Part shown: piece after piece, positions 9,001 through 15,000 of the stretch | Layout of the letters: the number at the start of each line of letters is the position of its first letter | Position numbering within the stretch: the first letter of the stretch is position 1 | DNA from: a candidate division WOR-3 bacterium | GTDB taxonomy: Bacteria > Hydrothermota > Hydrothermia > JBDRYB01 | NCBI GenBank assembly: GCA_049969615.1 | Contig: JBMFOM010000035.1 | Location: forward strand, 1 to 16,609 | Length of the DNA stretch: 16,609 nt | Direction of reading: 5' to 3' | Made by a program: the position numbers

Positions 9001-12000
9001 TGCCCGGCCTTCATCAGAACATCGGCCAGGTGTGAGCCGATGAAGCCAGCGCCGCCAAGAATCGTTATCTTCACCCGGAAAGTATAAGGGCTTGCACTGG
9101 ACTCGCGCACCCATGAACCCAGGGGTGATCCTTTCCGCGGTTGTCCTCTCTTGGTCCCATTCAAGTCGGACAAGGCCAAGGAAGGCCAAACGGGTTGAGG
9201 GTCGCTCACTCACCCTGGCCAATTGCGAGGAGAACACGCTAAGTTGTTGTGACCCGAGAACTTCCAGGCTATCCTAAATCAGGCCTTACCTCTGGGAGGC
9301 GCGGGTATGTGAGAGCTTCCACAAAGAGCTTGAAAAACAGCGCGCGCTGGCATTATTATTTCTCGGAAACCGAAGGAGGTTTGACATGTTATTCTTATCC
9401 ACGATGATAGTTGGCCTCTCCGCGGAAGCCAACGCATATCTGGAAGGGCGCAATGACCCATCCTACTGGACTGAGGCAGTTCTCGGCAGGGGCGTGGTCG
9501 TCTATACTGCCGGAACAGACCTGGACGCAAAGGCAAAGGACCTGGCGTCGCGCGGCGCGACCGTTGTTAGGGTCAACGAGATACCCGGTTCCATAGTCTT
9601 CACTATACCCGAAAAGACCGTGGACGCGACCAGGGCCTTCCTGGACGCCACGCTCACTGATCCGGCCGTTCTCTATGCCGAGCCCGATTTCAAGGTTTAT
9701 CCCCACTTCACTCCCAACGACCCATACTGGACATCCTCATACCAGTGGGGCGTGAGGGACATCAACGCGGACGACGCGTGGGATGTGGCTGGACTCGGAT
9801 CAATGAGCGCCATAGTGGCCATAATTGACCAGGGCGTCTATTATACCCACCAGGACCTGGCCGCGGCCTACGGTTCCCCTGTTGGATATGATTTCGTGAA
9901 CGAGGACAGCGATCCCTCTCCCGGCAGTGGAGAGGATCACGGCACCTGGACATCCGGCATAGCCGGCGCACGCATAAACAATTCAATCGGCATGGCAGGC
10001 GTCAGCAACTCAAGGCTCTATGCCCTTCGCGCGATGACATCATCCGGCGGCACATACACGGACATAGGGGACGCGGTATACTGGGCCGCGAACAACGGCG
10101 CGCACATCATCTCCATGAGCCTCGGTGGATACAGCACCTCCTCCTACCTCCAGAGCGCGTGCCAGTATGCCTGGAACGCTGGGCTTTATCTCGCGGCCAG
10201 CTCCGGAAACGACGGCTATAACTATGTTGCCTATCCGGCCCGCTACACAACGGTCGTCGCGGTTGGAGCCATAAACCAATCCCACACCAGACCCACATGG
10301 AGCAATTACGGCGCTGATCTCGAGCTCTGCGCGCCCGGAGTATCAATCCTGGGTTGTTATGGCACGAGCCAATATGTCTATGGCGACGGCACATCCGCGT
10401 CCTGTCCGTTCGTAACCGGTGCGGCCGGCCTGGTCAAGGCATACAGGCCCTCTTACACCAATCAGCAGATAAGGGACCTCCTAAACAACACCGCGCACGA
10501 TTGGGGTTCTGCTGGTTGGGATCAGTACTATGGTTATGGCGAGGTTGACCTCTACGCGGCCGTTGTCGGCGCGGGTATAACCGAAGACGAGCTGGGGACA
10601 AAGTTCCCCGTCATGGCAAGGGTCTCACCATCTGTGTCCCGTGGAAACGCGAGCCTCGCGCTCTCGCTTGGTGGTCAGAGGGATGTCGTGGTCTCAGTCT
10701 ATAACGCGGCCGGCGCTATAGTTGCCATCCCGTTCAAAGGCTCCCTGTCCGGCGGCAAGCACAACATAGGACTTGACCTCTCCAACCTTTCCAGAGGAGC
10801 ATACCTGATCGTTGTCTCTGACGGCTACAGCAGGGCGACGAGCAGGTTGATAAAGGAATAAGACCGAAACGCTAAAACACGGCCCTCTCCAAAGGAGAGG
10901 GCTTTTTTTGCGGTTTTTCGGGCAAAAGTGTCTATCCCGGCCCTTCCCAGGCAGGGCTTTCCGGCTAGACAGCGGGCTGGAACTGATACTCGGCTAAAGG
11001 AAACTCTTGCCGGGAAACGATTCTTTATTCCCCCCCCACCAGTTTCACTTCCTCAAAGAACAACGCGGCTTGGCCATCCGTGCCCGAGTAATCAACCCTG
11101 AAGGGAAATTCAAGTCCCCCTTCCAACCTCCTGTAATCCGCAAAGAAAAAGTTCTCTCCCCACATGGAGAGGCTCTTTATCCTCTTTCCCTCAATGCTCA
11201 CCCTGGCCGTATCATATCCGAGCCTGAGATCAAGCAGGATAAGATTCCCGACCCTGCTGGCAGAAATGACCGAATCCGCGATTGACTCGTCAGGAACGCC
11301 AAAGAGCAGTGATGCCGGGCCCTGGTTCGGAAGATCGACAACTGAAAGAACACCGCCAAAAGGGCCGTGGAGGACGAGCCTCATCAGGGATGTGTCCTTG
11401 GAAAGAGTGAAACTTCCCTCAAGCACGAGGAGACCTTGTGTTCCCCTGTATCTGCCGAACGCTGTCAACTGCTGGCTAAAGGCGTTTCTGGAGGCCGCGG
11501 CCGAGAGCACGGCCGCGGCAGTCTCAGGCAAAACATCCCTGGGGAGCCGTGTTCCCCTTGGAACACACGAGAGGGATACTATGGCTATGAGAATCGGGAC
11601 GATCTTTTGCATCTCTCGGCCCTCACTATGGCCGCTATATCGCTCGCCGCCTCCTCCAGATCATCATTGATGACCCAATAGTCATAGCCAGCGCCCTCGC
11701 GCATCTCCTTTCTGGCGGCCTCAAGCCTTTGAGCTAACTGCTCCTTATCCTCTGTTCCCCTGCGCAGAAGCCGGTTGACGAGTTCATCTATGGACGGCGG
11801 CGCAACGAAGGCAGTAATGCACCTGGGGCCGAATATCTCCCGTATCTGTTTCGCTCCCTGGGTATCAATCTCCAGAACAACATCCATTCCTGCCTCAAGG
11901 TGATCCACCAGCGGCTTTTTCGGTGTCCCGTAATAATGGCCGAAAACCTTTGCCCACTCAGCGAACTCCCATTTTTCAATTCCGGCGAGGAAATCACTCT

Positions 12001-15000
12001 CGGACATGAATAGGTAATCAACCCCGTGGGTCTCCCCTGGCCTCTGGGGCCTGGTTGTTGCGGAGATTGAGAGCCAGAGGCCCTCGGTGGACTCAATGAC
12101 CTTCTTTATGACGGTGCTCTTGCCAGAACCAGATGGCCCTGATATGACGAGGATAAACTGTCCGTGGTTTCCCCTCATTCCAGATTCCTCACCTGTTCCC
12201 TGATCTGCTCAATCAGCTCTCTCATCGTCACCGAGAGGGATATGAGCTTTGGACACGAGCTCTTTGAGGAGAGGGTCGTTGCCTCCCTGTGCAATTCCTG
12301 ACAGAGAAATTCAAGCCGTTTTCCGACCGGCCCATCCTGCGAGAGGGTCTCTCTCAGGGCCGAGAGGTGTCCCCTAATCCGTTCCAGCTCCTCCTTCACA
12401 TCGGACTTTATGACCATCCAGCTGGCCTCCAGAAATAGCCTCTGGCGAACCTCCTCGTCAGCCAGCGGCAGTCTGGATATATTCTCCAGAATCGTGCGTT
12501 TCCTGGATTCGTTCTCCTCCTCTTTGAGAGATTCAGCCTCGTCAGTGAGGCGAGAGAGCCTCTCAATGAGATCTAGGACTACCCTGCCCGTTCTTTTGCC
12601 CTCCTGGTTCCGAGTCCTTTCCATCTCCTCAAGTGCCGCTGACACTATCGCTGACAGCTCCGTGATAATCTCTCCTCCCATTCCGGAGAGAGCGTTTGCC
12701 ACACGCGGGGCGTTGAAGAGGTCAACGGTTGGAACAATCCCCTCGGGGACGAACTCCTTTAGCCTGGTGAGGTATTCGGTGAGCGCGGCGCCGTCAACCG
12801 GCAGGAGGCTCCCCGTATTAGTCATCTTTATGGTTACCTGTATCCTTCCCCGTGAAAGCCTTTGTTGGATCAGTCTCCTTATCTCAGCCTCGGCCTCCGC
12901 GGCATCATCGGGCAGAGACAACCGGATGTCAAGAAATTTTGAGTTGACCGAACTGATGGAAACCAATACGATGTGATCTCCAACCTTACCCTGAGAGCGA
13001 CCGAATCCGGTCATGCTTTTTAGCACGGCTAAATTATACCCTCTGATGCTCATCGTTTGCCAGTTGTGATGGTCTTAAAAAACCTTGTCCTGGAGCACCC
13101 TTCCCCGACGAAAATTAGGAGACCTCTGAAACATCAACTACTGAAGACAAGCCGAGGATGGCCCGGTGCATTAGCCCCCCACAAGCTACTGCTGGGTTTT
13201 GGAGAATATGCCTACCGTGTCACCGCCGAACTGAACCTCAAAGCCTCCCCCGACCTGGTTCGCGGGCAGGCAGTAGCCCATGTAAGCCATATAATAAAAG
13301 TCACCGTCCTTATAGAGCTTGAACTGCTTTCCCGCGAATCTTGAGTCCGGTTCCCATTCCTTGTAGCGTCCTTTTTTGTCCAGCCAGTAGAACTTCTGCG
13401 CGACCAGAACCTCCTTCTGAGGCTTGCCACAGGGCGGGTCATCGGCTATCACGAATGCTAGGACTGTATCCGGAATGATCCAGCTCCTCGCGGTATCGCC
13501 TTGCCAGATGATCTGCCAGCACTTGTTCCTGTGGAGAATCCACTCGTGGCCCTCACTGGCATAGATCTTGTAGTGGATGATGTCCTTGAGGGTATCGTCC
13601 TTCTCGGCGCCAGAGGTATCCATGTAGGTAAGTATCACCTGTCTGAGGAACTGGCCGGTCGGATAGCCGCACTCCGAGCCTCCGGTCTTCTGGGAGACCA
13701 GTAGCAAAAGACATGCAAAATGGCTCACCCCGTAATTTTAATGCAGTGGGTCAGGGGTTTTCCAGCGCGATGGGTCAGGGGATCCTCTTAGAACCCTGTT
13801 CCCTTTTTTCAAACCAGTAAGTTGTTGCTCTATTTTATCAGAGATCTCGGATCACTAACCTTTTACGGCCTTGATCCCCCATCTCCCTCTGCGGTATATT
13901 ATCAGTGTGACTGAGGACAGGAAAAAAATCTTCTGGGAGCTCTGGACTACGGAAGGCACTGCAACCGAGAGGGCAAGGCGCGTGATAGAAGAGATGGGAG
14001 AGGATGCGGCGAGGCTGGCGCAGGAGGAACTCGGCGTCCCGTTTTCCCTTTTCCAGCGAGCGGGAGTAATAGGGCCGGAGGAGAGCCTCATAATCCCCGG
14101 TGGCGAGTTTTACATCCCATTTGACATCAAGGTTGAGCCCGGAGGCGAGCTGCTCGTGTCTCCCGGCACGGTCATGCGTTTTGAGTCTGGGGCGGGCATA
14201 ACCTGCTACGGCCTCCTGAGAGTGATCGGTAGCACCGAGAACAGGATAAAGCTCCTGCCCCATGACGAGTCTAAAGGCTGGGCAGGGGTTAGGCTTGAGG
14301 GATCAGAGACCTGGGGCTCAATACTCTCCCTATGCGAGATATCCGGCGCGCTGGGAGTCATCTATCCGGGCGAGAAGACATCCTTTGGTGGCGGGCTGGT
14401 CGTTGCCGATACCAAGATAATCAAGGTTCACAACTGCCACTTCAAGAACTGCAAGGCCGACTATGGCGGTGGCATGATGGTCGCTGGAACGGTTGACCTT
14501 GAGATAATAGGCAATACCTTTCTTGAGTGTTCAGCAAGAGTTGGCTCTGGAATGGCCATTGCCGAGTGCGTCGGTGTTGTCATTGAGTCCAACAAGATAT
14601 ACAACAACCGTTCCGAGGAGACCGGTTCAACCGGCGGCGGCGCGATGATCTCGGATTCACAGAACATCCTCCTCACGAAGAACGACATCCGCGGCTCAGA
14701 GGCCAGCGCGGGCGCCGGCATTATGGTCGTTGATTCTCAGAAAGTCTTCTTTGACGAGAACCTCTTCTTCCAGAACTCCGCGAGGGATGAAGAGGAGGGC
14801 AACGGCGGCGGCTTGGCCATTGCTGGCTCAAAAGGCGTTGAGATAACCAAATGTCGTTTCCTGGGCAACACGGCCTCCAGCGGCGCGGGGATTGTCATAA
14901 TGCGCTCAGGTGGGGTGAGGGTAGCGGACTGCATCCTCGTGGAGAACTCTGCGGCCGGAACCCAGGAATCCGCTGGCGGCGGGGCGTTTTTCGGGGATGT

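Follow-up and report, generated by a model that had tools for sequence, protein, structure and literature searches.

RelA/SpoT, Gre and DksA-like genes in WOR-3 bacteria: a predicted loss of the classical stringent response in most genomes

The yicC–gmk locus and its genome

The stringent response is usually presented as near-universal, the exceptions being PVC bacteria and host-bound reducers. Does a WOR-3 bacterium manage without it? The question is raised by a locus whose gene order in E. coli is gmk-rpoZ-spoT, while gmk of the WOR-3 genome studied here (G000; 98% complete, 203 contigs) is followed by neither rpoZ nor spoT. In the window (the whole stretch of DNA analysed, 16,609 nucleotides), a yicC/yloC family endoribonuclease gene (12175..13053, minus strand; Pfam YicC-like N- and C-terminal domains; TIGR00255 170 bits vs. 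a cut-off of 167.5) opens an overlapping run of three genes, with gmk, encoding guanylate kinase (11585..12178, minus strand; TIGR03263 223.7 bits vs. a cut-off of 160), and a lipoprotein-like ORF of 195 aa (11025..11612, minus strand) directly 3' of gmk (28-bp overlap). This ORF matched no Pfam or NCBIfam family and showed no RSH, Gre or omega domain; its Atlas neighbours at 0.93-0.94, unnamed lipoproteins and a LolB cluster, may serve as a lead only. As the survey's finding had stated, no RSH gene lies beside gmk and rpoZ is found elsewhere (C20:12306-12665, upstream of coaBC); neither gene is present at 11585-13053. The locus serves merely as a peg, and the absence in question is genome-wide.

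Six-frame searches of G000 detected neither the RelA/SpoT synthetase domain PF04607 (best E 0.278, in a match that crosses a stop) nor the hydrolase domain PF13328 (HD_4); taking either domain, anywhere, as membership of the RSH superfamily, the genome has no member. An HMM that we built on 138 long Rel sequences gave a best E of 2.1, and tblastn with 12 small synthetases as queries a best E of 0.047. TGS had a single match, inside a frame of 327 aa. The N-terminal coiled coil of Gre (PF03449, GreA_N), its C-terminal domain (PF01272, GreA_C) and the GRAD fusion were all missing from G000. Our own Rel, Gre and DksA HMMs, validated by leave-one-family-out controls (E<1e-25), found no match in G000, nor any across 1.65 Mb of G063. 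Pfam, our HMMs and, for Rel, tblastn thus bore out the earlier claims that the genome has no RelA/SpoT domain and no GreA/GreB.

(p)ppGpp synthetases across WOR-3

The synthetase domain was missing from nearly the whole phylum, as claimed before: 253 of 272 WOR-3 genomes were without it, closed ones included, and 19 had it (11/181 among the high-quality genomes). The earlier count of 4/101 came from a different genome draw and was not reproduced, and the size range of 1.4-3 Mb gives way to 1.2 to 4.7 Mb in the tables. The same search recovered long Rel in 61/61 genomes of a control phylum; within WOR-3, rpoC was found in 186/188 and HPF in 184/188 genomes. No synthetase domain was found in the single-contig genomes G132, G133, G148, G149 and G150, nor in G084 and G085 (3-4 contigs). 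The conclusion holds that the classical stringent response, as predicted from gene content, was lost with long RSH in the 264/272 genomes that have no long Rel, closed ones included. Again no paper was found on WOR-3 together with ppGpp or the stringent response (broad RSH surveys may list WOR-3), and RelA, SpoT and ppGpp went unmentioned in the WOR-3 papers and supplements examined.

The 19 positive genomes comprise 8 with a full-length bifunctional Rel and 11 with synthetase-only genes. Synthetases had been described as scattered and short, which is true of the 11 and false for the 8, of which seven belong to the sister families f3 and f4, in the class of G000 itself, and one (G076) is a probable misbin. 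A stringent response absent from the phylum, as originally worded, is therefore wrong: f3 and f4 carry an intact bifunctional Rel, its gene lying at a conserved site that in every case follows ARPP-1. Their protein resembles bifunctional Rel (TIGR00691) in its full domain set (HD, synthetase, TGS, AH/RIS and ACT in 7 of the 9 ORFs scanned; the ACT match is weak, the cut ORF of G076 has none, and that of G040b was unscored) and in scores above the cut-off (760 and 742 bits vs. 499). The catalytic motifs (HD; RxKxxxS, DxxGxR, YxSxH, ExQ) are intact. The protein differs in the longer helical region of f4 (about 795 aa) and in the position of both families' genes behind ARPP-1, and it is a predicted enzyme only. 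The G076 gene was rejected as a third native lineage (1.8-kb contig, 8% contamination), its product branching inside f4, with 88% identity to f4 Rel. GC does not set its contig apart from the host.

Families f3 and f4 together form a clade within the class (SH-aLRT 95; 0.916 in a second tree), so that vertical descent of their Rel would take about six separate losses vs. one loss and one gain. We lean towards a regain, because Rel of f3/f4 groups with Aquificota (FastTree 0.99; LG+C20 SH-aLRT 90; the sister sequence P0075 shares 81% identity with Hydrogenivirga Rel) in trees whose labelled Rel sequences came from phyla other than those near WOR-3. Under six-state recoding this sisterhood gives way to a grade that also takes in Thermotogota and Coatesbacteria. 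Both sister groups are thermophile-like in composition, an observation that we counted against regain.

It is possible, if doubtful, that Rel is instead an ancestral WOR-3 gene retained in f3 and f4 and lost separately on every other branch. The deep divergence of f3 Rel from f4 Rel (46% identity, as distant as from other phyla, vs. 80% for RpoC) would suit such a history, as would identities of at most about 47% over full length to outside relatives, a recoded tree that does not fix the placement, the repeated loss that Gre demonstrates within WOR-3, and the patchy occurrence of Ppx/GppA around these families of the class (f2 2/2, f4 3/3, f12 3/4). The six or so losses that it requires speak against it, as do the unrecoded trees joining f3/f4 Rel to Aquificota and the 0 remnants after ARPP-1 in 23 Rel-less loci examined (of 30). 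The empty rel site after ARPP-1 was rejected as a test of direction, its neighbours differing in every family, and Ppx/GppA (15/188 genomes; f3 0/1) as a Rel partner, its presence not following Rel.

Small or fused synthetases (12 ORFs in 11/272 genomes, 8 families), most with recognisable catalytic motifs, might suggest that (p)ppGpp or a similar alarmone is still made, by them or by an unrelated enzyme, in a stringent response without long Rel. Two of them share a contig with core genes (G105 C162, rpoC; G212 C44, DksA-like), and the phylum has four stand-alone hydrolase-type genes. We consider this improbable in view of the few genomes concerned, G000 not among them, of neighbours that, where scanned, are restriction, AAA, nucleoid or phage genes, and of the single genome (G020) that has hydrolase and synthetase together. 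We infer that the small synthetases belong among mobile or defence genes and do not act as starvation sensors.

Almost all WOR-3 genomes are metagenome bins, short diverged genes can escape (omega was detected in just 51/108) and G039 has no Rel though its genus carries it, but an artefact of incomplete bins or of a synthetase that has diverged beyond the reach of the models is very improbable and already largely refuted by the closed genomes and controls above, by the agreement of synthetase, hydrolase and own full-length models and by the diverged small synthetases that the same search picks up down to E 1e-8. In G039 the contig is simply missing, because the neighbouring ARPP-1 gene is absent as well.

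Gre and DksA-like factors

Gre was confirmed as missing from the class (1/64 genomes, 0/44 of high quality), and its loss extends beyond the class to f15, f17, f19-22, f24 and f33-43. It was found in 95/188 genomes of the phylum, mostly, as reported before, in long frames (490-800 aa, the long GRAD fusion). These long GRAD-type GreA proteins have Planctomycetota and Spirochaetota as Atlas neighbours and give sub-cut-off matches to the long GreA-fusion models PRK06330 and PRK14720. RSH and Gre were not lost in one phylum-wide event, because f3 and f4 have Rel without Gre and many other families Gre without Rel; half of the phylum has Gre, and its losses are separate and later. Within the class, the long GreA of G043 may be native. 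C-terminal scraps of GreA in G061 and G064 were rejected as genes (bins <90%; contig end or chimeric frame).

A DksA-like factor, kept by most of the phylum and lost in the clade of G000, had been missed by the survey. Its gene was present in 167/188 WOR-3 genomes, most of those examined having it upstream of lspA. It was found in 0/16 genomes of f1, f7 and f8 and in 0/3 less complete ones (0/19 in total), and in 2/2 of f9, the sister of this clade (f1+f7+f8, support 99). In G000 the site before lspA is empty, and neither the C4 zinc finger PF01258 nor a full-length match to 41 WOR-3 DksA homologues was detected (best E 1.7). The homologues are classed as DksA/YteA-like only, because all 5 scored fell below the NCBIfam equivalog cut-offs (TIGR02420 67-89 vs. 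105; NF033459 54-60 vs. 115.5). A DxxDxA-type tip, which we take to be the acidic tip of DksA, occurs in 7 of the 41 aligned homologues (f3, f4, f9 twice, f10 as DxxExA, f11 and f12), and in the remaining 34 the tip is H-led, mostly HxAD.

As the DksA-like gene is missing from all 19 genomes too, the clade f1+f7+f8, with G000, is by its gene content without Rel, Gre and DksA together, which is new here. Further factors were searched in five genomes each: RsfS, the c-di-AMP cyclase and Mfd were each present in 5/5, stand-alone CarD in 0/5 (G000 included; only Mfd-sized frames) and T-box riboswitches, as a replacement tRNA sensor, in 0/5. The genes for HPF, RsfS and Mfd are widespread, and their presence alone does not show replacement of ppGpp. 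In RNA polymerase, F773 was found in 74/74 WOR-3 rows (the cyanobacterial change F773V is absent), V940 in 7/49 Gre-less vs. 9/25 Gre-positive rows and Q1136 in 0 rows; no column of the regions scanned cleanly splits the 25 Gre-positive from the 49 Gre-less rows. The cyanobacterial trigger-loop/bridge-helix residues were rejected as compensation for Gre loss, and no compensating polymerase change was found, because these proofreading residues do not follow Gre status.

Proposed history and known systems

An old loss of long Rel, followed by regain in f3+f4, repeated losses of Gre and loss of the DksA-like gene in f1+f7+f8, explains these patterns with good probability. Long Rel would have been lost in or before the common ancestor of WOR-3, leaving most WOR-3 presumably unable to make (p)ppGpp on uncharged tRNA. 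Starvation would then be met without alarmone, HPF and RsfS parking ribosomes, and transcription would track nucleotide pools, mostly with a ppGpp-independent DksA/YteA-like factor. The ancestor of f3+f4 probably acquired a complete Rel anew, from a thermophile that is Aquificota-like on the tree. The long GRAD-GreA would have been lost at least four times, this class among them, and f1+f7+f8, on losing the DksA-like gene, would keep no known secondary-channel factor; their backtracked polymerase would most probably be rescued by Mfd and by its intrinsic hydrolytic activity. Since most WOR-3 have no (p)ppGpp enzyme, and f1+f7+f8 no polymerase helpers either, starvation and stalls would be handled otherwise. 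More tentatively, f1+f7+f8, within Hydrothermia, could be non-parasitic bacteria without the known polymerase starvation and rescue hardware (RSH, Gre, DksA; in G000 also CarD) that use an undescribed replacement, a non-(p)ppGpp signal with polymerase proofreading by a non-cyanobacterial route, and WOR-3 a natural loss-and-regain series of the stringent response. The three-factor-less clade raises the question of the minimum needed to survive starvation and polymerase backtracking.

The nearest known case is the PVC superphylum (Planctomycetes, Verrucomicrobia, Chlamydiae), reported without long RSH in passages of Atkinson et al. 2011 (PMC3153485) that do not name WOR-3; its supplementary tables may list them. 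Both are whole deep lineages without Rel, non-parasites included, and the long GRAD-type GreA of WOR-3 has Planctomycetota among its Atlas neighbours. Long RSH is missing from most WOR-3, closed genomes included, and not from every member (8/272 have long Rel); WOR-3 differ from PVC in the one clade with intact Rel and in the half that is also without Gre. Chlamydia trachomatis, as described in PMC9126822, retains DksA, its gene transcribed towards lspA, without ppGpp enzymes, and most WOR-3 likewise have a DksA-like gene, upstream of lspA in most of those examined, and no ppGpp enzyme. However, Chlamydia is an obligate parasite whose DksA failed to complement E. coli (same source), and in f1/f7/f8 the gene is gone. 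Cyanobacteria, Aquificaceae, Dictyoglomaceae and Fusobacteriaceae are without secondary-channel factors according to PMC4598747 and PMC7026648, which recalls the missing Gre and, in f1/f7/f8, the lack of both Gre and DksA; all four retain Rel (PMC3153485, Table 2), and the cyanobacterial F773V, N792D, A940V and G1136Q do not mark Gre-less WOR-3. WOR-3 would be a second deep lineage, over 43 families, managing without the stringent response. A member of the class, sy37 (closed genome AP038914), grows in pure culture (PMC12285271), so the claim is open to experiment. As Rel, Gre and DksA status varies between near relatives and one strain is cultured, WOR-3 offer a sharper comparison than PVC for life without (p)ppGpp.

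Rel and Gre in the genome and in the window

The genome of the window (G000; 2.06 Mb in 203 contigs, completeness 98.07%, contamination 0%) had been described in the survey as lacking RelA/SpoT and GreA/GreB, and our searches bore this out. The synthetase domain PF04607 was not found (best E 0.278, spanning a stop), nor was the hydrolase domain HD_4, and the single TGS match lay inside a 327-aa frame. A profile built from 138 long Rel proteins (full-length bifunctional (p)ppGpp synthetase/hydrolases) reached at best E 2.1 against 48,280 six-frame ORFs, and 12 small synthetases used as tblastn queries reached 0.047. 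Neither the N nor the C domain of GreA was found, and WOR-3 GreA profiles gave E >1. Both congeners were likewise negative for the synthetase domain.

The stretch flagged by the survey holds yicC (12175-13053, minus strand) and gmk (11585-12178, minus strand), after which comes a 195-aa lipoprotein-like ORF; as the survey noted, no RSH gene stands beside gmk, and neither does rpoZ. This carries little weight, because gmk-rpoZ-spoT is the E. coli order and is not known to be general beyond Proteobacteria. The rpoZ-coaBC pair was located as described, with the omega frame (C20:12306-12665) overlapping the start of coaBC. Throughout the phylum omega is short and diverged (51 of 108 at E<=0.01, 24 above the cut-off). 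The window also encodes a subtilase carrying a C-terminal sorting domain for type IX secretion (9386-10861) and an FG-GAP beta-propeller protein whose tail looks similar (1547-3073). Among four further ORFs (3198-4778, 13186-13728, 13871-15598 and 15678-16361) are a TPR protein whose C-terminal part resembles a regulator and a beta-helix protein; the other two match no Pfam family.

Distribution and origin of Rel in the phylum

PF04607 was present in 19 of 272 phylum genomes (11 of 181 high-quality), and the controls rpoC and HPF in 186 and 184 of 188, respectively. In Armatimonadetes, the control phylum, it was present in 61 of 61 genomes, one of them the centre of the sample and picked for having Rel, with every frame at least 660 aa. 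It was not found in five single-contig f27 genomes or in two class genomes of 3-4 contigs (99-100% complete). The survey's finding of a synthetase missing from nearly the whole phylum, scattered and mostly short, was thus confirmed in part, and its interpretation is supported in part: it describes 11 genomes well, but eight others, all of the window's own class, carry full-length Rel (f3, 2/2; f4, 5/6; f10, 1/4).

Long Rel occurs in three of the 181 high-quality genomes. The proteins contain HD, synthetase, TGS, AH/RIS and ACT domains and pass the TIGR00691 cut-off (7 of 9 ORFs scanned; the other two align to scanned ones at 98% and 84%). Rel of G034, a genome of the same class as G000, is 95% identical to a 'Candidatus Hydrothermota bacterium' protein, in agreement with the WOR-3/Hydrothermia label given by the survey. 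The rel gene lies directly behind the ARPP-1 gene in all seven f3/f4 genomes with Rel; the Rel-less f4 genome also lacks ARPP-1, indicating a missing contig. The f10 copy (G076, L002) is probably a misbinned f4 contig. In G040 the whole ARPP-1/rel region is present twice (L135, L136; 68% identical), probably from two congeners in one bin. Of 64 class genomes, 44 have ARPP-1 (PF20208; G000 C3:13861-14730 and L224-L253), whose neighbours are particular to each family; in f5/f6 the gene that follows it, judged by eye, is a putative diadenylate cyclase.

Twelve synthetase ORFs that lack HD, TGS and ACT are spread over the remaining 11 genomes. Nine measure 221-373 aa, and the other three are long frames in which the domain scan took in the part inside the locus; HD_4 was not found in the three genomes with long frames. 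Where their neighbours were scanned, these small or fused synthetases (L014, L016, L019, L010-L013, L015, L017, L018, L020, L022) stand next to genes for restriction enzymes, AAA-ATPases, nucleoid-associated proteins, phage portals or SAM lyases; they are possible defence or toxin-antitoxin modules. HD_4 was detected in 8 of 188 genomes (four long Rel, four small hydrolases). An (R)-SAM hydrolase-like domain is fused to an RSH-type HD hydrolase at L259:736-1995 (G060) and L260:658-1995 (G059); neither genome has a synthetase, and the enzyme probably acts on something other than (p)ppGpp.

Families f3 and f4 form a clade deep within the class on RpoC trees (0.916, 79 rows; SH-aLRT 95, 27 rows, six near-duplicate class rows omitted). 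Vertical descent of their Rel would take about six losses, so one early loss plus one gain is simpler. WOR-3 Rel proteins form a single clade (0.93-0.99; SH-aLRT 93) with Aquificota as sister (0.99, 176 rows; SH-aLRT 90 under LG+C20, 38 rows). A regain in f3+f4 is therefore our preferred reading, held with moderate confidence. A relic of the ancestral gene seems rather unlikely given the losses and the Aquificota affinity on unrecoded trees, although six-state recoding left Rel, Aquificota, Thermotogota and Coatesbacteria as an unresolved grade, f3-f4 identity is 46% for Rel against 80% for RpoC, and the Rel tree contained no labelled Rel of phyla neighbouring WOR-3. With the f3/f4 profile only two clusters among 1.84 billion representatives exceeded 1200 bits (next 799); hence no further lineage with this type of Rel showed up. 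Overall, we consider it likely that long Rel was lost in or before the WOR-3 ancestor, followed by the regain of Rel, losses of Gre and loss of the DksA-like factor.

Gre, DksA-like factors and RNA polymerase

The Gre domain PF03449 was found in 95 of 188 phylum genomes, and its distribution follows the clades. Almost every genome of f13, f14, f16, f18, f23 and f25-f32 has it, and it was not found in f1-f12, f15, f17, f19-f22, f24 and f33-f43 (G043, from the 64-genome class set, aside; for the last 59 genomes the figures, 30/30 vs 0/29, were counted from search rows). Gre-less families sit on at least four separate branches. The WOR-3 protein is a long GRAD-type fusion. The absence from the class noted by the survey held (1 of 64 genomes, 0 of 44 high-quality), and a full-length profile of the fusion agreed, adding two C-terminal scraps in poor bins. 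The only long GreA of the class (G043, L142:175-2088; genome 75% complete, contig 2.8 kb) may be a relic, since it forms a long branch outside all Gre-positive families and its GC matches the host; a misbin from an unsampled lineage is the alternative.

The DksA-like zinc finger PF01258 was present in 167 of 188 genomes and in the sister family f9 (2/2), but was not found in f1, f7 and f8 (0/16, plus 0/3 further members; f7 by this Pfam search alone), which form a clade (SH-aLRT 99) including G000. One copy in G034 is flanked by a membrane-protein gene and lspA; the same two genes are 56 bases apart in G000. A profile of 41 WOR-3 homologues gave no match in G000 or in 1,646,658 bases of G063 (f8; contigs up to C22). 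Profiles for Rel and Gre were negative on both as well (best E >=1.5), while leave-one-family-out controls gave E<1e-25, or E<1e-6 without the zinc finger. This is a third loss, besides Rel and Gre. WOR-3 homologues score below the DksA equivalog cut-offs, and most have HxAD at the coiled-coil tip. A second type with a two-acid tip (L286:1492-1857, L287:1228-1614, L334, L337, L346, L347, L307), limited to part of the Gre-less class, precedes gyrA in f3, f10 and f11, coexists with the first in f3 and f12, and could stand in for Gre.

Four residues accelerate transcript hydrolysis in cyanobacteria (PMC7026648). They are not a mark of Gre-less WOR-3: V940 is present in G000, but also in 9 of 25 Gre-positive rows. 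The f8 rpoC (L217 of G063, L216 of G071; 2/2 rows) has K at the otherwise invariant trigger-loop F935, G000 rpoC (C17) has S at G782, and bridge-helix Y795 is H in 12 class rows; F935K, G782S and Y795H are candidates for altered proofreading or pausing in Gre-less polymerases.

Life without Rel and comparison with known systems

Since there is no synthetase, tRNA-triggered (p)ppGpp would not be formed. HPF (184/188), RsfS, c-di-AMP cyclase and Mfd (each 5/5) are retained; T-boxes were found in 0 of 5 genomes, and stand-alone CarD is not among the retained factors. Passive control is the likeliest picture: shrinking nucleotide pools would slow transcription, ribosomes would hibernate under starvation and, in lineages keeping it, the DksA-like factor might tune polymerase independently of ppGpp, much as TraR acts without ppGpp (PMC4598747). 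In f1/f7/f8, Mfd and intrinsic hydrolysis would have to clear backtracking.

Like the survey, we found no account of the RSH, Gre or DksA status of WOR-3 in the literature searched, most subscription papers lying outside it; the parts consulted of PMC12542636, PMC12285271 (main-text terms, supplements) and PMC10632474 hold nothing on it. The class includes strain sy37, with a pure culture and closed genome (PMC12285271).

An RSH-less phylum is already known as a kind: Atkinson et al. 2011 list PVC, host-bound species and a few others as lacking RSH (PMC3153485). WOR-3 resembles PVC most closely, but differs by its nested Rel island and by a clade without Rel, Gre and DksA. Chlamydia lacks ppGpp but keeps DksA (PMC9126822), whereas Cyanobacteria, Aquificaceae, Dictyoglomaceae and Fusobacteriaceae have no secondary-channel factors (PMC4598747) but keep Rel (PMC3153485, Table 2), unlike f1/f7/f8.
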